Shown piece by piece: positions 1,854 to 52,746 of a stretch of DNA of 64,000 nucleotides. The DNA comes from a virus, in IMG/VR virus record IMGVR_UViG_3300034101_003081, positions 33,386 to 97,385 of that record; one strand, given 5' to 3'. How positions within the stretch are numbered: the first letter of the stretch is position 1; each line of letters begins with the position of its first letter. The position numbers were made by a program, and so were the translations under genes. Below the pieces are notes generated by a model that was not told the origin of the DNA, did not search any database, and was given only the letters and a program-made list of their open reading frames with translations.

Positions 1854-2684
1854 TCAGGCCTTGACCAGTTCTGCGATCTGCTCTTCGTCGAACGTGAGGC
1901 CGCACTTCTCGGCGATCTTGATCACGTTCTCTTTCAGGCTCTTCGCCGACAGGTTGACCGCCGACAGAATCTCGTCGATCTCGACCGTGCCCTGACGCTT
2001 GCCGTAATCGGCGACCGACGCTGGGTGGCAGTTCGACGGGCAGTGCCCGTACAACTCCATCCAGCGAAAACCGAACCGCCGGAAGAACGACGGGTGTGCG
2101 ACGGTGAACGCGAGGCGGTCAGGGTCGACGATCTCGCCAGGCCGCTTGGCGACGACGTTCGCCGTGAGGTGAAGGCCGTGACCGCTCGTCGCCGTCGAGC
2201 AGATGACTTCGCAGCGAATGCCGCACGACTCAAGCAAGTCGACCGCCACCAGCACGGCCACGCCGCGGGCCGCGATCGCGTCGGCGCTGACGGCCCCGCT
2301 CACGCACTGATTGAGCCGTATCGACACGACCTTGGACGACACCGTCTCGCCGTTCTCAAACTCCTGGCCGCAGCACTCAGGCTCGCCCGACAGGACACGG
2401 CCAACGTCGATGAAGTCGCCAGTGACGTCCCAGCCGAACGTCCGAGACTTGGCAGTCTTGGCGGCGGAAATAAACGCCGAGAGTCCATCGCGGTGCTTGT
2501 TCACGCGGGCGACGCCGTCTGCCCAGCCCCTCGCGAACAACTCGCCAGCCTCGGCGTAGGTGTCCGTCCAGAAAAACTCCTTCCGGCCTGTGGCCTGGCT
2601 GTTCTGGCTCACGCCCTTGTCGTCGCGGGCGAGGTCTGCCAGGTAGTCGCTCACGGTCTCGTAGTCTTTGACGATCGTCTTCAC
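1854..2684 (-). CDS. Putative AAA+ ATPase partner protein (vWA-like), paralog 3
   Basis: GTG at 2684 with AGGAGA RBS. Contains GDFIDVGRVLSGEPECCG and RLAFTVAHPSFFRRF. Confidence 0.65.
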   Translation of the reverse strand: MKTIVKDYETVSDYLADLARDDKGVSQNSQATGRKEFFWTDTYAEAGELFARGWADGVARVNKHRDGLSAFISAAKTAKSRTFGWDVTGDFIDVGRVLSGEPECCGQEFENGETVSSKVVSIRLNQCVSGAVSADAIAARGVAVLVAVDLLESCGIRCEVICSTATSGHGLHLTANVVAKRPGEIVDPDRLAFTVAHPSFFRRFGFRWMELYGHCPSNCHPASVADYGKRQGTVEIDEILSAVNLSAKSLKENVIKIAEKCGLTFDEEQIAELVKA

Positions 2685-2773
2685 TGGGATGGTTCTCCTG
2701 GGCGTTGGCTTGTGTCCCCGCTCCCCGGCCGGCAAGCCCATAGCCAGCCGGGGAGCGTATCCAGACAACTCGA

Positions 2774-4039
2774 CTAGAGGTTCGCCTCGATCTTGCTGCG
2801 GGTGTCCTTGTCGAGCCCCTTCCAGACGCAGGCGTCGAGAGTGGCATCGACGGGCCAGCCAGCCCGAAGCAGGGCGACGCCGTTGATGTTCGCACGCGGC
2901 GAGACGATCACCCGCACGCCCTTGCCGAGCGAGGCAATGGCATTACGGACGGCGACGACCTTCTTCACGTACTCGGCGACCCGCTCCTCGGCGACGGCCT
3001 TCTCGACGTCGGTCTTCACCGAATGCACCTTGATCCCCTTGGCCTGCGGGGCCTCGGCGAACAACTCCAGGGACAGGCCGCAGGCCGCCGCCTCGATCCG
3101 GGGATCGTACTGCCAGTCGACCAGCACGAACCGATCGAGCGTCGCCGCGTCGATCTGCTGCCGTCCCACGTACTGCCGATCGGCACCCTGCCCGATCGTG
3201 TTGGCACCGGCGATCAGCACGAAGTCGGCATGCTTCGCGACGACGGCGTCGGGGAACGAGGCGTGCCCGTTGGCGAGCAACTGATTGATCACGACCAGCA
3301 CGGCCGGATTGGCCGCGTCGACCTCGTCGAGCAGGAACACGCCACCATGCTCGTAGGCGTCGCGGAGTTGCGTCCGCACCACCTTGCCGTTGGCGTCGTG
3401 GTAGCCGAGCAGGCTCGACTCGGACGTCTGCGGGCCGACCGACTTGGCGTAGAACGGCAGGCCGAGCGAGTCCGCGACGGCATGCGCCGACGACGTCTTG
3501 CCAGAGCCGGCAGGCCCGACGAGCCAGCAATTCCTGCGGGCAGCAACGGCGGCGAGCAAGGCCTCAAACTGGACGTGCTGGACGCCCACGTCGTTGGCGA
3601 CGCCCTCGACGGTCACGACCTCGATCCGCTGCGGCACCAGGGCCGCGATCCGCTGATCGACGATCGCCGTGACCTCGTCGATATCGACGCCGCCCTTGCC
3701 GCCCTCGGAGGTCACGAGCCCGGTGTCGCGGACGGCCTCGGCGATGATCTCGGCGAGGGAACGATTGCCGCGACCGCCGTCGATCTCCGAGTCAGACTCG
3801 ACCTCGCCGTTACCGTGTCCAGACTTCTCGGCACCGCTCGCCCACAGGCTCAGGCCCCGGCTCGTCTTGACGACCTGCTCGCCGTTGGGTCCGACGAGAT
3901 GGAAGAGACGGGACTGGCGACCCTTCTCGGTCTCGCGGGTCTCGACCCGCTCGATCGTGAACTCCCTGCCGTCCGCGACGGTGATGACGGCGCCGACCTT
4001 GTACGACTGCCACGAGTTGTTGATGACGTTGTTGTTCAC
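2774..4039 (-). CDS. MoxR/CbbQ-like AAA+ ATPase
   Basis: Walker A GPAGSGKT, Walker B FLLDEVD, sensor GANT, arginine finger DAATLDRF, sensor-2 VSPRA. GTG start at 4039 with AGGAGA RBS. Confidence 0.9.
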   Translation of the reverse strand: MNNNVINNSWQSYKVGAVITVADGREFTIERVETRETEKGRQSRLFHLVGPNGEQVVKTSRGLSLWASGAEKSGHGNGEVESDSEIDGGRGNRSLAEIIAEAVRDTGLVTSEGGKGGVDIDEVTAIVDQRIAALVPQRIEVVTVEGVANDVGVQHVQFEALLAAVAARRNCWLVGPAGSGKTSSAHAVADSLGLPFYAKSVGPQTSESSLLGYHDANGKVVRTQLRDAYEHGGVFLLDEVDAANPAVLVVINQLLANGHASFPDAVVAKHADFVLIAGANTIGQGADRQYVGRQQIDAATLDRFVLVDWQYDPRIEAAACGLSLELFAEAPQAKGIKVHSVKTDVEKAVAEERVAEYVKKVVAVRNAIASLGKGVRVIVSPRANINGVALLRAGWPVDATLDACVWKGLDKDTRSKIEANL

Positions 4040-6027: not shown

Positions 6028-6402
6028 TCAGCCCACGCCGGCGGGCAGAGGCTGCCAGTGCGTGGGCTGCGGCTTGAACGTCGCGAGCGAATCAGTCCTG
6101 ACGAACACGCCGTCCTCGCCGCAGCAGCCGACTGAGACGGCGTCTTTGACGCAGACTAGCACGGGTTCGTCGACGTCAGGGAGCCGAGACTTGGCCGCGA
6201 CCCACGGAGACTTGGACTTCTTTGGCTTTCGCTTCGGCGAATCGGACTCGACGAGCGTCATGCTCAGTTCAAGCCGCGACGTGCCTGAGTATTCCTGAGT
6301 CACGGATACGCCCGTGATCCACCCCGTGACGTTGTTGGGCAACGCCCCGCCGTACTGAGACGCGACATAGTCGAGGATCGCGGACGAGAGTTCTTCGTTC
6401 AT
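6028..6402 (-). CDS. DUF551-like phage protein
   Basis: W......RLP...PTHWQPLP signature. Confidence 0.6.
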   Translation of the reverse strand: MNEELSSAILDYVASQYGGALPNNVTGWITGVSVTQEYSGTSRLELSMTLVESDSPKRKPKKSKSPWVAAKSRLPDVDEPVLVCVKDAVSVGCCGEDGVFVRTDSLATFKPQPTHWQPLPAGVG

Positions 6403-14100: not shown

Positions 14101-17100
14101 CGACGCCGTCGGGCTGCTCGCTGAACTTCAGAATTGCCGGTTCTGTGTACCGCTCTCCGGCGTTTTCGATCTTCAGTTCGACGTCACCCTTGGACACTGG
14201 AGGGCCAAACGTAGGATGCCCAAGCAGCCAGAGCGACTGATCTTGCTCACGAACTCCGCAGGCTCCTCCAATTCGTAACTGCTCTATCTGCTGCGACTCT
14301 GGAAAACGCGGCGGCGGGATGTCCAGATGCCCCGCGCTCTCGAAACCGTAAAACAATCCGCCGGCTTCCTGCCTTGCGAAACCAGCCTGCGTAATCTCTG
14401 CCCACGGCTCTGCCCCGCCGATTTTGGCCGGCCCAACCCCGCCGTGGCGGAGTTGGCTTGGAACAAGTTCGTACACAGCGCCGCTGCCGGCGGTGTCCAC
14501 AACCTCAAGGGTGCCGTACGAAAGCGGAAACACCTCTCTTGTGTATCCTTTCTTCGTCTGCACGAGGCCCTCGGTGACGTCCGTGCTTGGAGGAATAGGC
14601 GGAACATGCCCAGCAGTCCACGAGTGAAGATTGAACCCGCCATACGCAGTATCGTTGTGCGGGTAGAAAGTGTGGGGGACGACCGAGCCGCACCATGTGT
14701 CGAATCCTCGGAGGCTAGCAAGCGGTTCATTGGGGCTGTCAGGGACGCCGACTAGGTAATTTGCCCCCCACGGGCCGCCAAGCCCTTCCCAGGCCGGAGC
14801 CGCAAACTCGCCCGATGAATGCACAGATGTCTGCACCGAAACAGACTGCAAGGTTGGGTGGTTATTGAAGCCAGTGCCAGCGCAGTCTATTTTTGTATAA
14901 GTTTCCGTTCTTTCGATTATCCGCCAAGCAAACTTTTGGCCTGAGTACCTGAGTTTCGCCTGTCGCGTGTACCCCGAGCCTCCGCTCTTGAGAACAAAGA
15001 CTCCGCTTGTGCCTTGCGGGCCGTCGAAATGATCGCCGGGAGCCTCGATGATATTAAGAGTCTTTGTATAAGCGGGAATCGCAGGAGTCCTCGCGATTGC
15101 TGCGAAAGGCCAAGAAGCCGATGAAACCTTCTGGTAAGTAAGCGAGTAGTCGCCGCTGGTAGCGGCTGTGTTGCGATTCTTGTTTGGCAAGCGACTTCCA
15201 TGCACGGCGGCTGTAGCGTTGAGGTGCCACGCCACGCCGGCTGCGTCAATCGCCATCGCCCGAGAGCCGACGGCGACAACCTGCTCGCACGAGTCTGGGC
15301 CAACGAGACTTGCGGAGGCAGACAAGACAGGCTCCCCGCGGGGCTCAAAGTAGACCTCCGGCAACTCTATGTATCCGCACCCGCCGGTTACGGAGATTTC
15401 GTAGTCTCCTTCGTATTTGATATTGGCGAAATAGTCTCCGGAAAACTCTCTGAAGCCAGCGCCATCGGATGAAACTGCGGAACTCCCCCGAGACTTCTCC
15501 TGACGATTGCAGGAAGCCACCGCCGCATGGATTCCCTCGTACGCCGGTGGAGAAATGAAGATTCTTTCTGGCGAGACTGGGCATGAGTCGTCCCCCATCG
15601 CGGGCGTCGCCGTTATGTAGACCCGCTTGCCGACTGGGCTAGGCTTTAATATTGCATCCGAAAGGCCAGGAACGCTTCCCCACCAATAAACCCGCCCGTC
15701 AGACTTTATTGCAAGTGAGTATCCGCCTTGACCGGCCGCAACAGACTTCCATGTGTCAGTTCCGACTTGTCGCCATCGCTGCCTGAAAGATTCGATCTTC
15801 ACGATTGGCTCGGAAGAGTATCCGTACCCGCCATCAGTTAAAACTGGCTGCTGGATAACTCCCTCCGGAGAGGCTGTCGCCGTTCCGGCTGCGTCTGCTC
15901 CGGAGTGCGAGAGGAATTGAAGGTTGTACATTACGGATTCGATTGGCGGGCCATCCCACCCAGAAGCCGGCACTCGGCCTGCTACCCACTTCTTGATATG
16001 CGGAGCAACTTGACCAGAGATCGTCACTTGCGGAGCGGGGGTGCCGGGCGGCGGATTCTCTCGAATGCCGACCTTTCGCTGGACAGCGTAAAGGCCTCCA
16101 TCGACAATCTTTGCCTCAACTTCGGCGTCACTTTCCGAAAACGAAACAGACGCTGACGTCCAATAATTGCCAAAGATACCAATCCCACCAATGCCCACAG
16201 CCTGCTTAACAACACTTGGGTTCGGCGACTGAGCAGGAAAAGGCGGAAACGCCTGCTCCCACGGAGCGCATGTTGGAAACACGTTCCCCGTCGCAGCGAT
16301 GTATGTGTACGGAGGGCTGTCTGTAGGCTGAACTGTCCCCGTGACAACAATCCACGGCCTGCACGGCCATCCGTCCGAATTGGACGTGACAGTGACAGTC
16401 CCGCTTTCGTCTGCGGCGATTGTCTCTGATCGCCCTCCAACAACGAGAGAGACTTGATACTCGCCTGCTGGATAGTATCCAAGCACAGTTCCGCTTTTGA
16501 CTCTCCCGAAAGTCTGCTTCGGAAACGCAACCTGGCTCGCATTTGGCCCAAGAGTAAGCGACTGGACTGGGCCGGGCTCAATTTTGCACACAAACGCTGC
16601 TGCGTTTGATGGAACGCCGAGGCCTATGCCGTCCAAATAGGACAGCGTAGGCGAGTCTTGAAACTCGTCGCTTGGGTCTCTAGAGAACACGACAAATGGC
16701 GAACGCCTAAGTTCACCGTCACTTGTCGAGTGCGAAAACCTGGCAGTCGTGTAGCCGTTTCCAGGCGACTTGATTACAACCGACTCGACAACGCCTTCTG
16801 ACTTCGCCGCTGCCTCGGCGCCGCTGCCTCCCCCCCCCGAGAAGACAATCTTTGGCTTCTCTTTGTAGCCGTCATAGCGGGCAGGGCTTGCCGACGAGTT
16901 CACCGTCACCGAGTGAACGTAGCCATTCCCAAAGGTCGCGGTGGCCGTCGCGCCGGAGCCTGGCCCGGAAAAAGTTATCGGGTAGCCCGATCCTCCTTGG
17001 CCGCCGTACAGGCCTGGGGTGCCTACTGTGACTTCGAGGACGTGATTCAAGACAAGGCTGGCAGTGGCCGACGCCCCGCTCCCGCCTCCGCCGGTAAAAC

Positions 17101-19993: not shown

Positions 19994-22900
19994 CTATCGG
20001 GCTGAGAGTTGGGCGATGACTTCGGCAGCCTCCGGCTGGGCTGCTGCTTCGGCGAGGATGCGGGTGTTTCTCGCGACCTCCAACTGAGCCTTGAGGCCTG
20101 GATTGTCGTTGCCACGAAGAATCCGGAAGAACGTGTCCACGCCCGCCTTGCTGCGGACGTCCGATGACTCGATGGCTCGGCGATCGGGAGCGACCTTGTC
20201 GAGGGCGGGCTTGAGGTCTTCTTGGAGTTGGGCTTGGAGGACTTTTTTCCGCTGGGTGCCGTCTTCGTCGGTAATCAGCCCCTCCTCGACCGCCCTGTTG
20301 ACGGCGTCGAGGTCTCGCTCGAACTTCTTCACGGGGCTCTCCGCTTCGCCGCCTGGGAGCATCGCCCGGCGGGCCTCGTCTTGGCCGCGAGTGAACTCCT
20401 CTTGCGAAATGAGGCCCTTGTCGAACGCTTCGCGAAGGTCGCCAAGCCGCTCGCCGAGTTGTGTCACTGGGTCAAGAGGAATGCCGAGCGACTGGAGCAG
20501 CGAATCCTTCGCCTTTTGCGACCCCTTGGCGAACTCCTCGGCGCTGATCTGTCCCTTGTTGAACGCCTCGTCGAGTTTCTTCAGCGACTCCTCGGCGGCC
20601 TGGGCCGGGCTCTTGTCGATTCCAAGCGACTGAAGCAGTTTGTCCTTGGCTTCCTTGAGCCCCTTCTGCAACTCCTCTGGCGTCAGTTCGGCGGCATTCT
20701 CTTTGATCTTCGCGATTGCATCCTCGAAGTCCTGTGCGGGCGTTTTTGAGATTCCAAGCGAAGACAGCAAGGCGTCCTTCTGTTCTTTGACGGCCTTGTT
20801 CATCTCCTGCTCGGAGATGACTTTGTCGTTGAACGCCTTCTCAAGTTTTGCCCGAGACTCTGCGAGTTTCTGGGCGCCGCTTTTTTCGACGCCCAGATTT
20901 GCCTTCACGGCCTCAGAGTTCTTCTTGATCGCCTCTTGGTACTCCGCGAACTTTTCGGGGCCGAGTTCCTTCTGAATCTCCGTGAGAGACTTGCCAGCAA
21001 CGCCGAACACGTCATTGATGTTGTCAACGCCTGCTTTGAGTTGCTGAGCAGGGCTAGCGTCGAGGCCAGCAGCCTTGCGTCGCTCGATGTCCAGTTTTGT
21101 CCTCTCGGTCGACGCCCTGACTTCGCCGGCCGCGCGAGAGCCTTCCGAAGACATGAACGCCGTTCTGCCGTACTGGTCGACGGCGGTCGCATTTGCGAAC
21201 ATACCTTCCTTGTCTCTCAGCGAATCTCCGGCAGACTTGCCGAACGTCGACTCCACCATCTGCTTCTGCTCCGCGATGGTGGCAAGAGACTTCTCTTGGG
21301 GAGTGAGAGACTTGTTGTTGGCAATCTCCTTGAGTTTCTTCTCGTACTTTTGGACTGGGGACAAAAATGCGTCTTCGAGAGCCTTGCGAATATCGTTCGC
21401 AAAAGACACGTCGGCTTCGATCTTCTTGTTGTTGCGGTCGAGATTCGCCTTTGCCTGCTCTCTCGCCTGTGCTGCCGCACGAAGGGCCTTCTGTCCCTGG
21501 CCGAAGTCTCCTCTCTGGAGAGCCTCTTCGATGCGAATCAGTTCGTCTTGGTATGCCATCGCGAACTTCTCTGCCGACTGCTTGACTTCGTCAGACGTCG
21601 GAAAGAAGCGGTCTGTATTCAGGTCGCTGCCGATGTCGCTGCCCCGCATCAGGGATCGCGTTTGGGCAAATGCTTCTTCGACAGACTTCCGCATCTCTTC
21701 TGCCGATTGCTGGAACTGCTCCGGCGAGATCACGTCCGCAAGATTCAAGTTTTCTTGCAGGCGGCCTCGTATTTCCCGCGTGCGGCGCTCAAAAGCCTCG
21801 ACTGCCGTCTCAGTCCGCTTCGTGCCGTCCTCGTTGACAATGACCTTGAGTTCAAGGGTTCCGTCGGCGAGTTGCTGCTGGAGTTTGTCGAAGTCAGCCT
21901 TGGCGGCCAAGAACGACTTGCGGCCAGCCTCGCCGAACCGCGAAGCGTTCAGCGAAAGCCCGATCATGTTTTCCCTGGCGACGCCGACTGACCTCGCAAG
22001 CGCGTCGTAGTCTTCAGTCGGCATCTCTGGCGTCTTGCCAGTGAATCCAGCCACTGCGGCCTCGGCCTGAAACTTCGCCGTTTCTTGCCCGCGACGCGAC
22101 TGAACGACGTCGCCGACAGATGCAGTCGCCGCGTTGATTTTCTCTGGTGTTTTAATTCCGCTAATGGACTTAATGATGCCGCCGATGATGCCACCGAAGA
22201 AACCCGTTACGGTTTCGGCCACCGTCTTGAACGCGCCGAAGATGGCGTCTGCAATCGCGGTGCCTACCTCGGCGAGCCCATCGAGCGTGAACAACTTTCC
22301 AATATTGTCGCCAAAATTGGAAAAGTAGGCGTAGAGTTTGTCAAAGTTCTGAATGAGGGCGATGATCGCCACTGCGACCGCCGCGAGGCCCAGCGTGCCA
22401 ATAATCCAGGCAGCAGCCATGGCGTATCCGGTAGCCGTTGCGGACACCGCGATCGCCGAGTTTCCAGTAATAACCATCGCCACTGACGTCATAAACGGCG
22501 TGAGCAGTTGGGCGAGCGTAGACGTTCCGGCGACAATCATGCTCGCCACCCACTTCGACGACATCGCGACGACGTCGATGGTGAGCATGCGGACCAACTT
22601 GATGATTCCGCCGAAGATGGTCGCGAAATTGAGGCCCGACAGGCCTGCGGCAAACTTCGCAAGTGCTGCGCCTGCTTGGATTCCAAACGACTGCATGACA
22701 GCAGACGCCACGCCGGCCGACACGACCACAGTGGCGAACGTCTTGACGATGAAAACCAGTCTGTCAAAAAGGCTTGCAGACTCTTCGATTACTGGATTGA
22801 GTTCAGAAGAGAACGCAGATGCGATTTGCTGCACATAGTCAACGCTCTTTTCGATCTCTGCGAGCGCGTCCTTGATGATTGTCCCGAGCGCCGTCCACGC

Positions 22901-41300: not shown

Positions 41301-44080
41301 GTCATGGCGCCGGCGTTGGCCTTCCGCTTCTGTTGTGGCGTGAGTTTGACGTCCTCCTTGATCGTGTCGATGTCGGCCCGATCAAGAGGGCCGTCGAAGC
41401 CAAACTGCGGCCACAGCCGATATCCTTGCAGGGCACTGGTCGATGTTCCTGCGGCGATCGTGTCGGCCCGGATTGCTCCGGACTTCTCGGCGACCGAGAG
41501 CGAATCCGTCATTCGCTCCAGCACGAGACTGACGATTCGCCGCCTGTCGGCCGAGTCGTCTTCCAAGTCTCCGCTGATGGAAGACATGGCGGCAGAATCG
41601 AGCGACATGCTGTCGTAGTTGACGACGAGATTCCCGTCGTCGTCCTTCATCAGCGACACCATGTTCTCGATATTTCCAAGACGGCCAGAGCCGTCCGGTG
41701 CAACTGGAATCGAAGAGTTGACGATGACGGATTCGCCGAAGGCGTCGATGCTGACTGATCCGCCAGGCCGAACACCGCCGCTGATCGCGACAACGTCCTC
41801 GACGCCTCGGACTCTTCCGAAGTCAGAGAGCGTGTCCTTCAGAGACTGGACGTCGTTCACGGCGAACGAGTCGAGGACTTCGGCGCCCTTAAATGGGGGC
41901 GACGACGAAATGGCTTCTGCGTCCATGTCGACGCTCTCTTCGTCCTCCCACGACGAGCCGCCTTCGTTTTCGTCGGCCGCGCAGTCGTTGCCGGCCCCGA
42001 ACCTTCCGCCTGCGGCTCGGCCGCAGTCGGCCCCGGCCCTGAACTCTGCCTGCTCGTCGAGCCACTCGAAGAACGCCCTCGACTGGTTGCGGGACTTGAG
42101 CCTCTTGAGCCGAGCCGCCTGCTTCTGGAATCTCGCGTAGCCGAGGCTTTTCTTGTCATTGAGGTCAATAGACATACTGAGCGTCGAGCCGTTCTCGTTC
42201 CACCAAACATCTCCCTCGTGGAACGAAATCAAGTGCTGGACGGTAATCTTGGACCGCGGCAGAGCCGCGACGAGTGCAGCGTGCGGCGGCACATAGCGAG
42301 TAGCGAACAAGTCTGGCCTCGCCGCTCGCATCAACTTCTCTACGAACTGCGGAGAAGCCTGCGAGATCGCATGCAGTTGTGTGTTTTCGAGTTCTGCATC
42401 GAACCCAAACTGCGGCCAGAGTCGGTAGCCCTTGAGGTCGTACTCCGGTCCTCCGGCGGCGGACATCTTGATGCGACTCAGGCCAGTATCATCAGCGGCG
42501 AGCATCGCTTCGATGACAGCCTGCTGCATGAGGCTCGTCGCTCTCGCAACCCGCTGCGGAGTCGCGTTGACTTCCGGGCTTGGGTGCATCCCATTTAGTC
42601 CAAGGACATGCTCTCTGCCTTCCTTGTACACGGCGATATTTACGTTGAAGTGGCCCTCAGACGGGTCTCCGTCGCGAGATAGCGGGATTTCATTTTCAAC
42701 GCTAATGTAGGCGCCGAAATCTGGATGGCCGGCGCCTGAAAATACTGCCTTGCTGCCACGAACAGTCGCGCCGCCCATCGTGGCAAGGTGGTCGAGAGAC
42801 TTGATTCCAGCCTGGGCCATTCCGCCCTGGAGAGACTGCGGGTCGGGAATATCAACGCTCGTGGCTTTGTCTGCTCCGGCGTACGGAGGCTTGTCTTTCA
42901 GGTCGCTGCCGGAGAGCAGTACAGAAGATTGCGAGTCTTGCCATGACTTGTCGACCTTGGCCGGCGACGCAGAAGGCGACTGCTCGCCAGGACTGCACGA
43001 GTTGTCGATACCGCCGCCTTCGCCGGTGGGGCAGTACGCTCGCACTTCAGCCCACGCCTCGTCGAGAATGCCGCGGCATTCGACGTCAAAGAATGCGTCG
43101 GCCAAGTCCAGGCCCCGCTTCGAGAACTTCTGGCGGATCGCCTGGAATCGCTTCCAGCCTGGGCTCTTCGAGCCGATCTTGAGCGACATCTCCATCTCGC
43201 CGCCATTCTTTTCCCACCACTCCTGGCCCTCTTTGGTCTCGTAGAGGGCCTGGATCGTGAGAGCGCCTGCGGCTTTTTCTTTCCTGGCTCGCGGTGAAAG
43301 AATCCTGTCAGACAGTCCGCTGCCGTAGGAACTGAAGAACCCCTTTGCGAGCGACCATGTCGGCGTAATGCGGCCTCGCGGGATCACCCCGTCGAATCCA
43401 AGCCTCGGCCAGATGCGATACCCGCTGAACTCCTTGTGCCTGCTGCTGCCGGCGGCCAGCATCTCGATCCGGTCGACGCCGATCTTCTCGGCCTCGACGA
43501 TGCTGCTGACCGTGCCCTTCATCATCTGCCTTGCGATCGCGACACTCGAAGCCTGTCTGGCCTTTTCGCTGACCATCAGCATCGTGTAGGACATGACGAG
43601 GTCGTCGTTCTCTTCACGCGACAGAGAGACGGCCGTCTGGGCTGCGCCCTGAACCCCTGCGATGGGCATGCTGCTGATCACGGTGACCGTGTCTTCGATC
43701 CACCGCTCTGGATCACTGCCGGTCATAAAGTCAGTCAGTGCGCGCATGCCTCCGTGGCCGATCGTGACCTGCGAGTCATGGTCAACGGCCGCGCAAGCGC
43801 GAGCGGCCTGGTCGAGCGTGACGCCGATCTCTCGCAAGGACTTATTGACGAGTTCGCCGTCGACGATCACGACGGAACTGACGCCAGCCAGTGACTTCGC
43901 CGGCGGCGACTCTTTCAGTTCGTCGCCCTTGTACACAACAGTGCCTTGCTCTCGCTTCCAACTGCTGTCGGCTTTTACTTTGCCAGCGCCGCCAGGCTCG
44001 CCAGACGAGCAGTCGTTCTTGACGCCGCCGCCTTCGCCGGTGGGACAGAAGGCCCGGTACTCTTCTTCGAGAAAAATCAC
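35390..44080 (-). CDS. Giant polyvalent head-associated protein (about 2900 aa) made of tagged enzyme-like modules
   Basis: GTG at 44080 overlaps the portal TGA. Contains nine Cys/Gly tags, four GY.[IL]WP..GFD domains, and ART-like, HhH-like, HDxxxH, GNAT and HEYAH modules. Occupies the MuF position between portal and protease. Confidence 0.85.
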   Translation of the reverse strand: MIFLEEEYRAFCPTGEGGGVKNDCSSGEPGGAGKVKADSSWKREQGTVVYKGDELKESPPAKSLAGVSSVVIVDGELVNKSLREIGVTLDQAARACAAVDHDSQVTIGHGGMRALTDFMTGSDPERWIEDTVTVISSMPIAGVQGAAQTAVSLSREENDDLVMSYTMLMVSEKARQASSVAIARQMMKGTVSSIVEAEKIGVDRIEMLAAGSSRHKEFSGYRIWPRLGFDGVIPRGRITPTWSLAKGFFSSYGSGLSDRILSPRARKEKAAGALTIQALYETKEGQEWWEKNGGEMEMSLKIGSKSPGWKRFQAIRQKFSKRGLDLADAFFDVECRGILDEAWAEVRAYCPTGEGGGIDNSCSPGEQSPSASPAKVDKSWQDSQSSVLLSGSDLKDKPPYAGADKATSVDIPDPQSLQGGMAQAGIKSLDHLATMGGATVRGSKAVFSGAGHPDFGAYISVENEIPLSRDGDPSEGHFNVNIAVYKEGREHVLGLNGMHPSPEVNATPQRVARATSLMQQAVIEAMLAADDTGLSRIKMSAAGGPEYDLKGYRLWPQFGFDAELENTQLHAISQASPQFVEKLMRAARPDLFATRYVPPHAALVAALPRSKITVQHLISFHEGDVWWNENGSTLSMSIDLNDKKSLGYARFQKQAARLKRLKSRNQSRAFFEWLDEQAEFRAGADCGRAAGGRFGAGNDCAADENEGGSSWEDEESVDMDAEAISSSPPFKGAEVLDSFAVNDVQSLKDTLSDFGRVRGVEDVVAISGGVRPGGSVSIDAFGESVIVNSSIPVAPDGSGRLGNIENMVSLMKDDDGNLVVNYDSMSLDSAAMSSISGDLEDDSADRRRIVSLVLERMTDSLSVAEKSGAIRADTIAAGTSTSALQGYRLWPQFGFDGPLDRADIDTIKEDVKLTPQQKRKANAGAMTVQDLIATPEGDRWWNENGTTIELTLDFTDQTTAGYKRFERMKKMLARLKERNKTRSAFDDGVEHRDDCEQTESGQFAKGNDCAKGDGSPSKEKEKKPRAAKKAESPSQEPLKWTPGASHVDVFKESVEKSPTKRSDDGKKILSTSIPGATPVRGLAGKDEIDPISVGNYLVARQAEHRGRTIDTTKPLEGDDFEYMVSGIVSQVESARARGVSPNFYSPEDRRAQIEEYAKIQPLMRGGRTASGFCVGVETPSGECEPSEGISPQAEFLFRAAQALTSPEANPYENMLRADAVLTAFFEEPDPSKAKLGSGIRIAGAGAENTLANFARLQKIIDRVGLEEARRIFTGPPIKVSDFEKFFLSKVPGTEGDRYKANDYAVAEVVPPFSIFGPKVGPFFANNTGDDEALTADIWFTRTWGRLSGELVSKSSESLAKKHASDLMASTKDIPRKELTAMGLDGRQFRTLVAQMKRTGAIPQQIADWAEARDKQYKKDKFPHPDKGTGTAERYKLDRLAVAILKNQANVMRAPTTSVMRANMIRAMREAAQRTGVSVAYMQDILWQDEQDAWGTLGSRTTTVPGEPSLYSEVIRKIVTEPANYQKRRRESKRSLGVIAEPMSLPLYSDQKGGPEQALFADFIASMDDDEFADLAVEFLTKRAKESRAFCPTGDGGGIKNDCNSSDGGVLKSAVARWKGFTSEIDLHLKDELSGRPAPQSASGAKMREQAKAILREVIENGEPAPTLYRGDDKPPSDNDSTLLGWTSDKQVAEKWAKKYGGQVYTLKNATGLDLSRFGSAGDGTDDFQESEWIVLNNPPKKSSRAFCPTGDGGGVDNSCGSDDGSPAAGSPGRTQESLPKSFPRGSDKFRDAIDSVSPDPKSVWDRAKGRADTPPEKILTSAADEQTSSGSSLTPEAEKSYADLVDEIGRQYEALVAAGLKAKAWRGDGEPYGDPPGSTKPNSDKMREEVAKTGEFSFFMTERGFGTGSATPDHPMLRETKYKTADGEPMIANDLFRVVHDMVAHVRGGYSFSTNGEYNGMLTHASTLPESAWPALFAETFGQNAVYEKTGNYAAQNAYASKIGPEIIKAELAKRKKKSSRAEGKGDGDEPLGYQHIKVRPWLMQSPEESRAFCPTGDGGGVKNDCSSKDGGSSGDAVRQPSWMGKVDATGSTKHGKWFLEQNTKGNKPPGRDEAASHVVSLLDDKSKVKAFVHVDLSSDKKALYVHYSEVSKPFRGQGAYKSLLDSMSEQFDVISDEEHNVAPAAKKAYESLGARLNRYGRYVLEKNRRNARAFCPTGEGGGVDNSCSADDSPGQATASPGGDRWSSSESLTWPETSRDSSSPPLGDGRYGSINISAPKTVKSSLDAAGIDPKLAPMVAGGSEDSDVFVRPAPDFSMEFPDSKVTPVMFAFERDFAGVGGGLHGSSVIGVTAAGETVVYHSTVNVADAIKGDDAKRHAAAREFYRAMVSSVEAARKSGVSRIVLNAAGNSSATKGGVTATPWRGYTIWPRMGFDAPLPASIKSKLPPDLSHAKSLLDLHATPEGTRWWRDNGEDLDVTFDLKDRSSPQSKIMDRFIKKFGTDRREMPLGSGDEWLSPEDMLRLDEMWNEIWDDGELDDYEWVESRSADCGRDDDGRFGPKNDCQDKGSGQESPRPSKGAYSDAANPLAIKRVREHVDRGNAKHAAEDIAFLMESMPPSEVAKQLGFTSFDIDGSFDRDASKKPGFFSFLTGDPAKSAANHLAKLALAAKHAPGLKDSSFNFSKFNATVDTFAAEAGITSIIEKIRLAASMVGAKAACNLKNGEITVIQDRADDEKSLSRAYDRGWFSTDDPSHYVLHEYAHKLQHDVIASWAGGKDKVTSDFVGRFRNQVMDAISAIHNNQYFRADHSQPKPPAGASKDMLDRAMDVSMYGMTDPLEFLAEYWTGVTLGYVRNDEQFDEVFKAVDMKPPRKSDAAQSKYGESGIADRRREKKKRK

Positions 44081-47000
44081 GTCGAGAACTTTCCATTCGT
44101 GACCGCAGACAGAAGCCGCATGACGTCGTCGCCGTAGTCCTTCCCAGACCACAAGCCAGCCAGAGTCTCTGCGACGAACTCACGGTGGCTCGTCGCTGCG
44201 TAGCGAGAGACGCTCTCGGCGACCTTTCGGCCCTCGTCGCCGAATGAGAGAGCAGAAGAAGCCTCGTACGACTCTTCGTCGGCCAAGGCGTGATGGCGAT
44301 GAGCCAGTTCGTGAAGCAGCGGATTCGGCTGCGAGAGCCAGCCGCGTGCAGAGGCCAGCCGGAACGAGGCAACAGCCTCGTGGTTCAGAGATTCAGAAAC
44401 GTAGATTGAGTCCGTGTCGAGGTCGTACTCGGCAATAGCCCTGCATTCGGCTGCTGGCCGAAACACAACGCTCGGGACGTCGACCTCGCCGGACTCTCTC
44501 AGTTCTGCGGCGAGGTCTTCTGCTGCTTGGCTGCCCGCTCGACCCTGACCCTCTCCCTCATCGCCTCGATCGCCGCCGCGATCTCGTCCGCCTTCGCCCC
44601 CGACGGGAAGTCGAACCGCACGAGTTTCTCTTTTTGGCCTTGTTCGTCTGCCATCGTATTCATCCTTTCTGATTTCTTTCTTTTCGTTCAAATCCCAGAT
44701 CGCGAGTTGACTCGTCGACTCAGCCGAATCAATGGCGTCGTTGATGTCGTCAAACGGCTCCGACAGATCAAGGTACACCGCATCTTCTTCGGCATTGTAC
44801 CAGCCGCCGATGTGAAGTGCAGGCCTGTCTGCGAACTTAGACTTGTTCTCATCCAAGAACTTGGAGATCACCTGTCCTGTGACTTTCTGCCCAGACGGAA
44901 CAATGGTCTCTGACTCGGGAACGACAGACACCATGTAGCCAGACGTGGGACTCGACTCCGAAACAGGATGGATAGAGAAGCCCTTAGTCTTTTCGAGAGA
45001 CTTGATCGCCATGTCTGCGATTCGGTCAGACTTGGCGCTGCTGCTTTCTTTGCCGCTGCCGCCCCCTGTGCCGCCGCCTGTGTCGGGAGCAAGTTTTTCT
45101 CCAGCGCCGCACGAATTGTCGATCCCGCCGCCTACGCCCGTCGGGCAGAACGCCCGCTGTTGCTTGCCCTTCTTGGCGATGCGACCGCCAGTCTTGAGGG
45201 ACGAGTCGTCGCGGTGAGCAGAGACAGGGTACTCTTTGCCTCTGTTGTAGAGCCGGTCGCTGATCTTCTCGGGGAACGCTGGCTTGGCGAGCGACTCGAT
45301 CTTCGACGCCTGATCTTTCGACAGCGTCTTGCCGACAGGGACAATGCCAGCGCCGCTGTAGCCCATCTCCACGTAGAAGATGTCTTTGCCGGACGAGTCG
45401 CGAACGCTGATGCCGATCTTGTCGCCAGCAACTTTTGCCGACGACCGGCCAGGCTTGCCGCCGAGTTGACGCACCAAGTCCTTGATGCGACGCTCGGACG
45501 TGCCCATCTGGTACAGTTTCTTGGCGACGCGAGTCTGCTTTTTGTCGCCTTCGCCGCGACGAAAGCCGCGGACAGGATCGTCGCTTTCGCTGGCGCCGGC
45601 TCCTGTGCCACAGTCGCGAGACTCCGGCATGCTCAGTTTCTCTTCAGGAATGATCCACAGTTTGCAGATCGCGTTTGGAGAGATGATTCCCTTCACGACC
45701 TCGCACGATCCGCCCTCTTCGTAGTAGATGCAGTTCCGGCATGCGATGCCGCGAGACGCGAAGGGATTCTTCTCCATGTAGTGAGCGCCGCTCGGGCCCT
45801 GCTGCGGCCAGCGACCACTCTTCTTGACGATCTCTTCCTGGGCGTCGTACAGGGCCTGGTTCTGCGGCGAGAGGGCTCGCTTCTCTTGGATCGGCTTGAG
45901 TTGCGAGACCTTGATTCCAGCCTCTTCGCCTGTCTCTTCGTCGACGACGAGGGCTACTGGCTCGCCTGGCTGGACTTCGATCTTCTCGCCGGACTTGAGG
46001 TCAAGCGTGCCCTTCTCCATGACATGCTTGACGCGGCCAGTCTTGCCGTCGCCGTAAGAAACAAGCACGCCTTCTTCTTTCGGCTTCGACTGCTCGCCAT
46101 GCTCGGCAGGGTTCGGAGACTTGCCAGTCTTGACCTCCGGAAGACTCGGCACGCCTCCTTGGGCCGGCGGCGGCGGGCCGCCTGGTGCGGGGTCCATCAT
46201 CGGGTCAGGCTTCGGCTTGACTGCATCTTCGAGGGTCTGCATGTTCATGCCGACGAAGTGCTTGTCGCCGTTTTCGAGCGGCGCCATGTTCTCCAGCCGG
46301 CGGCAGTCGTTGATCGAAAAAATCCCGAGGTTCGTCATCGTGGAGTAGTAGCCAGCGCGAGAGTTGGAGTCCCCTCGCATCAGCCCGCGGACGTCGAACT
46401 CGGCAACGAACAAGTCGTCGTTGTAGATCAGCGACCGAGAGATCGCGCTCTCGATGCGACGCAGCCAAGGCACCAGCGTGTAGGTGACGAAGTCCTGGCC
46501 CTCGATCTCCGGGTTGCCGCCCGACTGGCCCTGCACGAGCCTGAGAGGCAAGCGATAGACCCTCGCGATCTCTTCAGACTGAAACCTTCGCGTGGACTCG
46601 AACTGCGACTGCTCGGCCGTGAAGCCGACAGGCTCGACCTTGAGTCCGTTGGTGAGGATCGCCGTCTTGTACGCACGATCGACGCCGCGATGGAGTCTCT
46701 CCCAATTGTCTCGCAGCCGCTCGGCGGCCTCGGGCGAGAGCGATGCGTCTGTCTGTAGCACCATGCCAGGCCGGGCAGAGTTCGCCCAGAACTTGGCAGC
46801 GTGAATCTCGCAGGCCCTCGCGAGAGCAATCGCCTCGCGGGCAACCTCGACCGGGACCATGCCCTTGATGCCGTCGGGCTCCGGCGTCCACCGGACGTGC
46901 ATGATCTGGTCTTGCGTGGACGGCTCCAGCCTGCCCGTTTCTGGATTCGTGTACATGTAGCGAAGGCGGCCGTTTTCAAGCCGCTCCACTTCCATGCGAG

Positions 47001-47445
47001 ACGGGTGGAGGTTGATCAATTCAGAGACAGCGCCATACCGGCCACTCTTGATCTGCGTGTAGGAGTTGCCCCACAGGCAGAGGTTCATCACCATCTGCTC
47101 GAAGAACTCGAACTTGGTCTGCCAAGCGTTGGGCGCGAACGACAAGACCCGGTGCAAGGGGATGTCGCGGGCGATGTCTTTGCTTCCGCCTTCGCCGCGT
47201 CGATAGACGTGCAAGGGAAGGGAACTAATCGTTTCTGCCAAGATGCGGCAACAGGCCAAGACAACAGTGGACTGGAGAGCCGTCTCGGGCGTGACTCGGA
47301 CCTCGGCGTCTGTTCGCCACCGGCCGCCGTAGTTTTCTCCCGAGAGCAGGAAGTTGTTCCACGAGATGCCGCGAATCTCTGGATCAGACAGCCCGCGTTC
47401 TGGTGTCCAGACAATGTCAGACAAGGCGCGATCTTCGGTACTCAC
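44077..47445 (-). CDS. HK97-family portal protein with a roughly 700-aa C-terminal extension
   Basis: Portal core: V.AC..ILAETISSLP, PN.WQT..EF, WGNSY, LHP.R, QF.E.R....EIARVY..P, SIND.R..EN. The extension carries Cys/Gly tags and HELAH. Confidence 0.95.
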   Translation of the reverse strand: MSTEDRALSDIVWTPERGLSDPEIRGISWNNFLLSGENYGGRWRTDAEVRVTPETALQSTVVLACCRILAETISSLPLHVYRRGEGGSKDIARDIPLHRVLSFAPNAWQTKFEFFEQMVMNLCLWGNSYTQIKSGRYGAVSELINLHPSRMEVERLENGRLRYMYTNPETGRLEPSTQDQIMHVRWTPEPDGIKGMVPVEVAREAIALARACEIHAAKFWANSARPGMVLQTDASLSPEAAERLRDNWERLHRGVDRAYKTAILTNGLKVEPVGFTAEQSQFESTRRFQSEEIARVYRLPLRLVQGQSGGNPEIEGQDFVTYTLVPWLRRIESAISRSLIYNDDLFVAEFDVRGLMRGDSNSRAGYYSTMTNLGIFSINDCRRLENMAPLENGDKHFVGMNMQTLEDAVKPKPDPMMDPAPGGPPPPAQGGVPSLPEVKTGKSPNPAEHGEQSKPKEEGVLVSYGDGKTGRVKHVMEKGTLDLKSGEKIEVQPGEPVALVVDEETGEEAGIKVSQLKPIQEKRALSPQNQALYDAQEEIVKKSGRWPQQGPSGAHYMEKNPFASRGIACRNCIYYEEGGSCEVVKGIISPNAICKLWIIPEEKLSMPESRDCGTGAGASESDDPVRGFRRGEGDKKQTRVAKKLYQMGTSERRIKDLVRQLGGKPGRSSAKVAGDKIGISVRDSSGKDIFYVEMGYSGAGIVPVGKTLSKDQASKIESLAKPAFPEKISDRLYNRGKEYPVSAHRDDSSLKTGGRIAKKGKQQRAFCPTGVGGGIDNSCGAGEKLAPDTGGGTGGGSGKESSSAKSDRIADMAIKSLEKTKGFSIHPVSESSPTSGYMVSVVPESETIVPSGQKVTGQVISKFLDENKSKFADRPALHIGGWYNAEEDAVYLDLSEPFDDINDAIDSAESTSQLAIWDLNEKKEIRKDEYDGRRTRPKRETRAVRLPVGGEGGRDRGGDRGDEGEGQGRAGSQAAEDLAAELRESGEVDVPSVVFRPAAECRAIAEYDLDTDSIYVSESLNHEAVASFRLASARGWLSQPNPLLHELAHRHHALADEESYEASSALSFGDEGRKVAESVSRYAATSHREFVAETLAGLWSGKDYGDDVMRLLSAVTNGKFST

Positions 47446-47455
47446 GGAGCCCCCT

Positions 47456-49123
47456 TCACAGTAAGATGATCTCCGGATCGGCCATCTTTGGTGCAGCCTC
47501 TGCGTCGCTGGCGAGTGCGAGAGCCATGACGAGAGCGATCATGCCGTCCACTCTGGCCGGGCTCATGGCAGACGGCTTCGCGATCTTGATGTAGCCATCG
47601 GCATTGGTCTTGATCGTGCAATTTCCGGCCATCCAGTTCAGGATCGGGTTGTCGCTCGTTCGCAGTCGCCCCTGCGAAATCAGCCCGTCGAGTGCGCGAG
47701 TAGGCGCATTCATGGCTGAAAAGTTCTGGGAGAAGCCTAACACGTCCAATCCTTCGGCCTGAAGTTGTTGGACAAGGTAATGGGAGTTGTATGGGTCGGT
47801 GGCGATCCGCCTGAGAGTCCGCTCCTTGGCAAACTTCAAGATGTCCCGCTTGATGAACTCGTAATCACATGTGTCGCCAGGCGTCAGCGTCAGGCCGGTC
47901 TTCGGGTCTTTAGCCCACTGGATGTACGGCACTTCTTCGCGTCGGGTGTCAGCGTTGTCGGCAGGAATCCAGAACTTGCAGATCACGTCGAACACGTCGT
48001 CGTGGGCCTTCGAGACAGCCACGAAAGCGTTGACGTCCCAGGTTTGGGCAAGGTCGAGCCCGCCGTACCAGACCCGCGACGAGTCGAGCAGTCCGGAGTG
48101 GCCCTTGCACTGCTCCCACTGGGTCAGGTTCACGAACTTCTCTGTGCCAGCCACCCAGACATTGAGCCTGTACCGCAAGAACGACGAGAGCCTAGACGGC
48201 GACTGCTCGGCCTCGCGGACGTCCGCCTTGAAACTCTCCTCGTCCATGGTGACGCCGAAGGACGGATTTGCAGCCCGCCAAACTGCTGGGTCGCGGTAGT
48301 CATCTTCAGCCGTGGCCGCCGCGATGTAGGCGAAGTACTGGGGATCGAGACTTGGGTCTTGCATGACCTTGAGGGCATGCTCGTGCTGCTCGTAGCAGAT
48401 CGACGACCTGTCGTAGCCGGCCGTAGTAATCGCCAAGACTAGGCTCTGGCTGCGAGAAATACCGCCGTAGCGGATCGCATCCCAAAGTTTTCTGTCCTTT
48501 GCGGAGTGCAACTCGTCATAGCACAGGGAATGGATATTGAGCCCTTCTGCCCGGTGGCTGTCGCTAGAGATAACCCGCCAGAATGAGTTCGTCGGCACGC
48601 AGGCGATTGTCTTGCGGGAGTCGACGATCTCCAGACGCTTGGACAGGTACGGGCTGGAGCGGACAAGTTCCGCCATCTGCTTGTAGACGATCCCTGCTTG
48701 ATCGCGTGACGTTGCCGCCCCGAAGCACTCAGCGGCTGGCTCGGAGTCGGCCACCGTCATGTAGAGCGAAATGCCCGAGAGAAGAGTCGATTTGCCTTGT
48801 GACGACCTTGGCCCCCGCGGCTACCACGCCGTGGGGGCCAAGGCGCCATTTTTTTTGGGCACCTCGATGTAGCCAACCCTGAACCTTCGCGTGTCGTTGT
48901 CGACCCGCATCCAGCCGAAAAGTTCCTCGATCACCTCGTCCTTCTGCCAGGGAAGGAGAGTGAACGGCTTTCCGGCGAACTGACCCTTGGAGTGGATCAG
49001 AAAGTTCTCGAAGAAGCCGACAGCGTGGGCTGCCTTGGCCTCGTCGAAGTAGTAATCGTGTCCGAGACTAAGCGCCTCGGCTTTTGATATACGCTTCCAG
49101 CGGGTCTTCTTGGGCAGCGGCAT
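47456..49123 (-). CDS. terL: Terminase large subunit, interrupted by a 51-nt in-frame stop-containing insert in Walker A
   Basis: 5' part LLPWQ...RRFR...EVPKKNG. 3' part GKST...DQA..V, DELH (Walker B), ITTAG, ANPS, GLDLA, DPYN, RVDG. Both parts are in one frame, with TAG at 48823-48821. Confidence 0.9.
48794..48844 (-). other. 51-nt hairpin insert in terL (candidate bypass element or mini-intron)
   Basis: An 11-bp plus 4-bp stem with the UAG at the loop, flanked by GGC codons at 48847-48845 and 48796-48794. Confidence 0.8.
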
Positions 49124-49532: not shown

Positions 49533-49774
49533 GATGCCGACTACTTTTTTCGGCGGCTCCTCGGTCTTCCAGGGTGGCCGACGGAAATATGCGTTTTCTC
49601 GGGCAAAAAGCCCCCTCGAAAAGTTTCGCAGCCGCTCACGGAAGGGCGCAGGCTGGGTCTTGGCCTCATTTTCAATTTCGGCCAAGACACTCCCCCGGAG
49701 TGGGCACAATCAAGACTCGCACAGAAGCCAAGTCCAGTAAAGTAAAAATCTTCTCTGGATTTTTTGGCAGGCAT

Positions 49775-49852
49775 GAGCATGAGCATGAGCATGAGCATGA
49801 GCATGAGCATGAGCATGAGCATGAGCATGAGCATGAGCATGGGCATGAGCAT
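49775..49852. repeat. Hexamer tandem repeat (GAGCAT) x13, one variant
   Basis: Read directly from the sequence. Confidence 0.95.
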
Positions 49853-49867
49853 GGGCCGGGCAGGCAT

Positions 49868-50092
49868 GGGCTTGGCCTGGCATGGGCTTGGCCTGGCATG
49901 GGCTTGGCCTGGCATGGGCTTGGCCTGGCATGGGCTTGGCCTGGCATGGGCTTGGCCTGGAATGGGCTTGGCCTGGAATGGGCTTGGCCTGGAATGGGCT
50001 TGGCCTGGAATGGGCTTGGCCTGGAATGGGCTTGGCCTGGAATGGGCTTGGCCTGAGCATTGGCAGGCCTGAGCATTGGCAGGCCTGAGCAT
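49868..50092. repeat. 16-bp tandem repeat GGGCTTGGCCTGG(C/A)AT x11, then GAGCATTGGCAGGCCT x2
   Basis: Five CAT copies followed by six AAT copies and a partial copy. Confidence 0.95.
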
Positions 50093-52588: not shown

Positions 52589-52746
52589 AGTGCTGTCCCT
52601 CCTTGGACGGCACTGATTTTACGACTCTTCTTGAGGTCACCCGAAGTTCTCGATCTTCTGCCAGCCAAAAACGCACGCCCGAGGAATCGAACCTCGCCAG
52701 TCAGATTTGGAGTCCAACTCGCCAGCCTTGGAACATTGGCGTGCAG

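Follow-up and report, generated by a model that had tools for sequence, protein, structure and literature searches.

A hairpin cassette in the P-loop of a phage large-terminase gene belongs to a family found at seven terL positions and may be bypassed by the ribosome

The interrupted terL gene and its hairpin

The 64,000-nucleotide (nt) stretch of viral DNA analysed here, hereafter the window, covers positions 33,386 to 97,385 of the IMG/VR record IMGVR_UViG_3300034101_003081 and carries on its minus strand a gene for the large terminase subunit, terL, whose P-loop (Walker A) coding sequence is interrupted by a hairpin cassette. The gene (47456-49123) begins with ATG at 49123 and ends with a stop codon at 47458-47456. 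The P-loop is broken after ...IEVPKKNG and KST... resumes beyond a 51-nt gap, the order on the minus strand being AAU (48850-48848), GGC (48847-48845), a 48-nt insert (48844-48797), a second GGC (48796-48794) and AAA UCG ACU. The upstream open reading frame (ORF) comprises 100 amino acids (48821-49123), and the frame entered at the second GGC, the proposed landing codon, remains open for 446 codons up to the stop at 47456-47458. Deletion of the 51 nt in silico yields an intact Walker A motif, PKKNGKST, and a TerL of 538 residues. The original prediction, drawn from this DNA alone, had described a Walker A motif split by a 51-nt, stop-containing hairpin with matched GGC codons, whose removal restores PKKNGKST and the 538-residue protein, and had placed a UAG in the hairpin loop eight codons past the take-off codon; translation of the minus strand confirmed each of these features, with the UAG at 48823-48821.

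The Pfam domains TerL_ATPase and TerL_nuclease are found on either side of the insert. The nearest solved structure is the HK97 TerL (6Z6D, E = 3e-47), in which the KNGKT P-loop aligns with the restored motif, and the peptide encoded upstream of the insert is ordinary TerL sequence in all relatives. The gene is present in a single copy in the 97,385-bp viral contig, for which CheckV estimates a completeness of ~99%. Among named genomes the closest TerL proteins are those of Planctomycetota genomes assembled from metagenomes, at 48-51% identity. Most of the contigs that encode a related TerL presumably come from freshwater lake metagenomes, judged from their record names.

The insert folds into a hairpin with arms of 11 base pairs (bp) at 48843-48833 and 48816-48806, followed by an inner 4-bp stem. 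A stretch of 101 nt has a folding energy of -51.6 kcal/mol, corresponding to z = -5.3 relative to shuffled sequence. The hairpin occurs once in the window (0/100 shuffles match) and once in the whole 97-kb genome, and a genome-wide hairpin scan of the phage found no second copy of the cassette. Other G+C-rich hairpins with stems of 10-12 bp, unrelated in sequence to the terL cassette, lie at 2719-2757 and 6029-6069 of the window and at 16357-16392 and 21167-21210 of the genome. A repeat of the miniature inverted-repeat transposable element or repetitive extragenic palindromic type was rejected on the single copy in the phage genome and on the restriction of the family to terL in viral contigs, and an attC-like site was rejected on its missing AAC/GTT ends.

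Comparison of alleles from related viruses points to an RNA structure. Across 17 alleles, 97.6% of the cells of the 15-bp stem are paired; five stem pairs have changed in both partners, among them a G-C to C-G swap that recurs, and about 29 stem cells are G.U pairs, which pair on the sense strand only. In 59/59 distinct alleles the sense strand folds more stably than the antisense strand, with a mean difference of 8.6 kcal/mol; these alleles share ancestry and do not constitute 59 independent trials, but the direction is uniform. The antisense fold is the weaker one because the G.U pairs turn into A.C mismatches. An orientation-specific pattern scan inside terL returned 45 sense matches vs 1 antisense match. 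As judged from these comparisons, the hairpin is selected on the strand of the messenger RNA (mRNA). An in-frame stop codon lies in the loop of 11/16 distinct alleles at the position occupied in the window, counted by inspection in a first set. The parts of the interrupted gene are collected in Table 1.

Table 1 Parts of the interrupted terL gene, in window coordinates.
Feature	Position	Strand	Basis
terL 5' segment, codons 1-93 (Met1-Gly93, ends ...IEVPKKNG)	48845..49123	-	ORF translation; aligns to the TerL N-terminus of all relatives
Shine-Dalgarno-like GAGGUG (codons Glu88-Val89), 12 nt 5' of the take-off codon	48860..48865	-	synonymous-site constraint
AAA AAA AAU (Lys-Lys-Asn), A8 run then U	48848..48856	-	codon identity among cassette-bearing alleles
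Proposed take-off codon GGC (Gly93)	48845..48847	-	sequence
Untranslated 48-nt insert; 51-nt coding gap when the landing codon is included	48797..48844	-	missing in L003-L006
G+C-rich 38-nt hairpin: 11-bp outer stem, 4-bp inner stem, 6-nt loop	48806..48843	-	fold, covariation, covariance-model matches
In-frame UAG in the apical loop, eight codons past the first GGC	48821..48823	-	translation
Purine tract AAGG at the hairpin 3' foot, 9 nt upstream of the landing codon; may act as a mini Shine-Dalgarno	48806..48809	-	sequence
Proposed landing codon GGC; decoding would restart at AAA (Lys)	48794..48796	-	first GGN 3' of the hairpin
terL 3' segment, from GKST... across the nuclease domain as far as the stop	47456..48796	-	446 open codons; Pfam; 6Z6D

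A cassette family at seven positions of terL

TerL relatives were drawn from collections of viral sequences, metagenomes and genomes, and the residues that flank the insert were located in them; pattern scans and a covariance model added further copies. A profile-guided search of the junctions gave 116 instances comprising 62 distinct alleles, on ~110 contigs (a count of contig names, from many datasets). The gaps of the family measure 46-52 nt, include every length modulo 3 and occur at seven terL positions; at the codon interrupted in the window alone, relatives have gaps of 46, 47, 48, 49, 50 and 51 nt. The insert must therefore be skipped, because the gaps occur in all phases and most contain stops in the zero frame, often also in the resume frame shortly before the landing codon. 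The original prediction had held simple read-through to be implausible and had proposed a search of related terL genes for variable hairpins at the same codon. Such hairpins were found, with gaps of 46-51 nt, and these together with the stops bear out the first point. A -1 or +1 frameshift at the A-run was excluded on the same grounds, gaps of all phases plus stops, and the -1 frame never rejoins terL; transcriptional slippage at A8 would leave the insert and its stop in place. Re-initiation after termination was also rejected, as the landing frame has no start codon and a split P-loop could not work.

Following the protein sequence, the cassettes lie after the Leu of IEL (codon before the hairpin/codon before the resume point CUG/CUG), after the Pro of EVP (CCG/CCG, also CCG/CUG), after the Asn of PKKN (AAU/AAC in 4 alleles, in which the next Gly codon shows all four wobble bases), after the Gly of PKKNG, after Arg140 (CGG/CGA), after Trp214 (~48 contigs, codons unmatched) and after Arg328 of FLRYR (CGG/CGG in 4 alleles and CGG/CGA in 1). 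The Gly position is that of the window and is occupied in ~52 contigs; its ~30 distinct alleles are mostly GGC/GGC, with the variant pairs GGU/GGC, GGC/GGU and GGC/GGA, and the take-off codon is GGC or GGU nearly throughout, the exceptions being GGG in L204 and no such codon in L021 and class II. Thus, at six of the seven positions the codon that precedes the hairpin recurs, in codon register, directly before the resume codon, and the differences between paired codons fall mostly at the wobble base. If insertions are taken to be independent, the probability that 3-bp target duplications would lie in codon register by chance is p ~ (1/3)^6, ~0.001.

Identical hairpins were found with tails of either 7 or 10 nt, giving gaps of 47 and 50 nt, and in both the landing GGN still abuts AAR. 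It is thus the codon, not a fixed spacing from the hairpin, that marks the resume point, which is hard to reconcile with a hairpin-recognising endonuclease. Many Gly-site alleles have a resume-frame UGA one or two codons ahead of the landing codon, which demands exact landing. At all sites 0-2 nt separate the take-off codon from the hairpin, and the short tails are rich in A and C and contain no earlier cognate codon; both traits agree with the gene 60 family of phage T4 (bioRxiv 10.1101/2022.08.31.505936). Take-off at the codon before the loop stop was rejected, as the Gly site offers no cognate landing codon for it in the resume frame.

The sequence upstream of the take-off codon is constrained at synonymous sites. 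Within GAGGUG, which matches the anti-Shine-Dalgarno sequence, the two synonymous sites show identities of 0.87 and 1.00 among cassette-bearing alleles vs 0.49 and 0.33 among cassette-free ones. At AAA, the first of the two Lys codons, and at AAU for Asn, all cassette-bearing pairs that can be compared agree (1.00); most cassette-free genes use AAC for this Asn. The wobble base of the adjacent Pro codon varies freely in both sets. The fixed synonymous sites of GAG GUG, AAA and AAU, all of them variable among cassette-free alleles, suggest an mRNA signal 5' of the take-off codon. Downstream, the counterpart of AAGG in relatives is AAGGAG, AAGGUGA or GAAGGA, at 3-9 nt from the landing codon on its 5' side. 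These bases also belong to the 3' arm of the stem, and since base pairing would by itself dictate them, the tract is weak evidence for a mini Shine-Dalgarno sequence.

Close relatives display three states at the P-loop: empty, occupied by a hairpin cassette, or occupied by a homing intein one codon downstream. The insert is absent from four TerL genes that are 93-94% identical to that of the window (L003-L006). One of these, L003, retains at 3250-3290 the AAU and GAGGUG otherwise seen in cassette-bearing genes only, and looks like a recent clean loss. The cassette is found in three distant clades of the TerL tree, a distribution that takes no fewer than 6-8 state changes, and near-identical hairpin cores are present in distant TerLs, from which it follows that the cassette also spreads horizontally and is lost cleanly. 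All pattern matches outside terL among 2.9 million viral contigs were unrelated sequences, so that within this survey the family is specific to terL.

Two relatives carry a cassette together with an intein or intein-like insert in terL. L026, whose TerL is 97-98% identical to that of the window, has a different 51-nt cassette (CCG...CCG, 1925-1975) four codons upstream, together with a 336-residue intein that contains a LAGLIDADG domain and follows GK (1996-3003). L027 holds a 133-residue mini-intein-like insert at the P-loop (2982-3380), which has no Pfam match, and a 52-nt hairpin cassette at Trp214 of the same gene (3690-3741). The sole transfer RNA (tRNA) gene of the phage, at 52672-52744 on the minus strand of the window, encodes tRNA-Trp (CCA); its codon, UGG, stands before the Trp214 cassette of relatives and, in the window, before the UAG of the loop.

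Comparisons between cassette-bearing genes indicate that the interrupted terL genes are alive and under purifying selection. The ratio of nonsynonymous to synonymous divergence (dN/dS) is 0.08-0.37 in both halves of the gene at dS of 0.5-2. In every cassette-bearing gene that is complete on its contig, the frame from the landing codon is open for 446-452 codons. In the main clade the hairpins have diverged alongside the genes with pairing retained. The earlier argument that intact flanks speak against decay is thereby upheld for both halves. The recurrence of the cassette, with sequence variation, in ~110 contigs rules out an assembly artefact.

A translational bypass weighed against other explanations

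We interpret the 51-nt insert as a programmed translational bypass cassette that belongs to a mobile family inside phage terL, and assign this reading a probability of about 0.55. According to this interpretation, the ribosome would decode up to the Gly93 codon, GGC, in its P site, where a very stable hairpin starting one nucleotide further on would block decoding of the next codon. The peptidyl-tRNA(Gly) would then release its codon and the ribosome would slide across the hairpin and the short tail, until the tRNA re-pairs with the first GGC past the hairpin, possibly placed there by the purine-rich Shine-Dalgarno-like tract. Decoding would restart at AAA and produce the intact PKKNGKST P-loop and the 538-residue TerL, while ribosomes that do not hop would stop at the UAG of the loop. 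The sequences show the anatomy of the cassette, its family, the constraint on its RNA, purifying selection and the matched-codon rule, whereas the hop, how efficient it would be and what the flanking signals would contribute are inferred. The original prediction had left the choice between a GGC-to-GGC hop and RNA excision, either of which might limit terminase output; the skipping itself holds, and as to mechanism the comparative data favour the hop, with codons in register and a landing site that follows the codon.

Several observations weigh against a bypass. The codon after take-off is an ordinary GCC (GUC, UCC or CGC in relatives), with the stop eight codons later, and the 15-bp G+C-rich hairpin is far stronger than the stem-loop of gene 60 and much stronger than that of any known bypass. 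The codon rule has exceptions, namely a landing UGC in L009, CCG/CUG in L024 and no matched pair in L021. At Trp214 the exact junction pairs UGG with AGA, CGC, CGA or UGA. Most alleles there would fit a different hop, in which take-off occurs at a GGC in the hairpin tip (often with UGA directly after it), landing occurs at the first GGC past the hairpin and 8 residues are added; the L145 type, L290 and L264 do not fit it. All Gly-site alleles, L009, L017 and L021 included, would also be accounted for by a rule that cuts behind the first base of both flanking codons, and the matched codons could be 3-bp target-site duplications. The nearest TerL among GenBank phages shares 39% identity, and these phages yielded no cassette; the family has no cultured relative.

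Such a cut would agree with the cassettes being a new class of hairpin mini-introns of 46-52 nt, cut from the mRNA and religated by phage or host enzymes through a mechanism not yet known in bacteria, a proposal that we consider unlikely. At each of the seven positions, Trp214 with its unmatched codons included, taking out the cassette exactly gives back an intact protein, and a hairpin selected as sense-strand RNA would suit an RNA-processing signal equally well. The 3' boundary, however, has no conserved sequence and lies at distances that vary by 3-5 nt from identical hairpins. By inspection, the flanks are not complementary and no bulge-helix-bulge is possible; splice sites of this and of the Ire1 type were rejected, the required structures being absent. 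The length of 46-52 nt is far below that of group I or group II introns, Rfam returned only a chance-level match and RtcB was not found in the phage. We know of no such mRNA splicing in bacteria. Moreover, excision would leave the codon register of the repeats unexplained, as well as the conserved AAC before a Gly codon that varies.

Another rival is that the cassette is a selfish miniature insertion that simply breaks terL, its carriers being defective, helper-dependent or sustained by rare hopping or precise DNA deletion. The mobility of the family across seven positions and three distant clades agrees with this, as do the near-identical genes with and without a cassette (the window vs L003, with AAU and GAGGUG kept), the short direct repeats beside most copies and the alleles that violate the codon rule. 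Yet both halves are open and constrained in the ~110 carrier contigs, compensatory changes have kept the hairpins paired while these diverged with the genes, and upstream synonymous sites are constrained specifically in cassette carriers. In addition, the contig of the window is rated 99% complete and has one terL, and the element was found in terL only among the 2.9 million viral contigs. We therefore hold a gene-breaking insertion to be rather unlikely. The scenario that the original prediction had named as its own refutation, a defective prophage with a small insertion flanked by a target duplication, thus survives in part: the element is small, mobile and bordered by short repeats, but the genes remain functional rather than decaying.

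A feature acting at the level of DNA or transcription, or an artefact, is very improbable. Read on the plus strand, the extended stem runs straight into T8, as in an intrinsic terminator of antisense transcription, but this was rejected as the selected function given the weaker antisense fold in 59/59 alleles. The mRNA order of a Shine-Dalgarno-like GAGGUG, A8, a 5-nt spacer and a hairpin resembles the -1 frameshift site of dnaX; the A-run, however, is Lys-Lys-Asn coding sequence that is also present in cassette-free genes, and no single shift restores the frame across gaps of 46-52 nt, in which stops block read-through. The ~110 independent contigs in which the cassette varies in sequence argue against a fault of assembly.

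If the bypass is correct, nature would supply a mutational series for recoding research: ~60 distinct alleles at seven positions, with five amino acids at take-off, tails that vary and a hairpin of great strength, through which release, slide and landing could be probed. Gene callers split essential phage genes at such cassettes, and terL is then mis-annotated as two ORFs. The hotspot that the cassette shares with homing inteins at the P-loop raises the idea that it spreads by homing or protects against homing. RNA excision, if true, would be more surprising still and would also explain the Trp214 site.

The surroundings of terL are ordinary, with a portal gene downstream and, upstream, a terS of the Terminase_4 family and then an HNH gene. 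The latter was rejected as a cassette-linked homing endonuclease, as it stands beside terS in cassette-free relatives too. The portal ORF, directly downstream of terL on the minus strand (44077-47445), comprises 1122 amino acids and has a C-terminal extension of ~700 residues. Long tandem repeats between terS and the HNH gene (49760-50090) may mark the region of the packaging site; they consist of a hexamer run, read as His-Glu, Met-Ser or Leu-Met alternation depending on the frame, and of units of ~45 nt.

Comparison with known bypassing and mobile elements

To our knowledge, two natural systems of long-range programmed bypassing are known, T4 gene 60 and the mitochondria of Magnusiomyces, in addition to a 10-nt candidate in phage Hau3. 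No description of hairpin coding gaps in terL was found in the literature searched.

Gly is the favoured take-off codon in T4 gene 60, and according to Manning and Atkins cassettes of this type, including the homologues in Myoviridae, are found only in topoisomerase genes (bioRxiv 10.1101/2022.08.31.505936). The terL cassette resembles that of gene 60 in its gap of ~50 nt and in matched Gly take-off and landing codons that tolerate wobble variants. In both, a stem-loop begins at the take-off codon and the tail before the landing codon is unstructured and G-poor; the purine-rich tract a few nt before landing in terL is a possible counterpart of the mini Shine-Dalgarno tract of gene 60. Both are also mobile elements in an essential phage gene, with clean presence or absence among relatives. 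In contrast to gene 60, the terL cassettes have no stop or rare codon directly after take-off, and their hairpin of 15-17 bp is G+C-rich, whereas the gene 60 stem is short with a UUCG loop. Furthermore, the gene 60 family resides in a split topoisomerase gene and the terL family in an unsplit gene, at seven positions and with five different amino-acid codons, and no mobA-like endonuclease is linked to the terL cassette. By eye, the T4 cassette has no sequence similarity to the terL cassette, and Rfam gave no match.

The mitochondrial byp elements described by Lang et al. in 2014 reportedly begin with a stop or an unassigned codon. The first codon of the terL inserts, in contrast, is an ordinary sense codon. 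Moreover, byps are mitochondrial, whereas the terL family comes from a bacterial virus and is so far confined to one gene. In other respects the byps of M. capitatus and M. clavatus are similar: they are short mobile inserts (27-55 nt vs 46-52 nt) at many positions of conserved coding sequence, skipped between matched codons, with Gly as the commonest take-off codon and GGA/GGU pairs common (PMC13461519).

The P-loop is a hotspot for homing inteins of TerL, and L026, L024 and several prophages carry an intein at GK|S, the same hotspot as that of the cassette. Inteins are in frame and removed as protein, whereas the cassette contains stops and the lengths in relatives are not all multiples of three; an intein was accordingly rejected for the window, on the in-frame UAG and on gaps of 46, 47, 49 and 50 nt in relatives.

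The closest published parallel is the terminase gene of the Streptomyces phage Hau3, which contains 10-nt UUA blocks that are candidates for bypassing and are known in only three genes (PMC10732093). The Hau3 gaps measure 10 nt, are triggered by the rare UUA codon and contain no large hairpin, in contrast to the terL cassettes, but one of the blocks interrupts the large-terminase P-loop at G|K, the same spot as that of the cassette in the window (PMC10732093).

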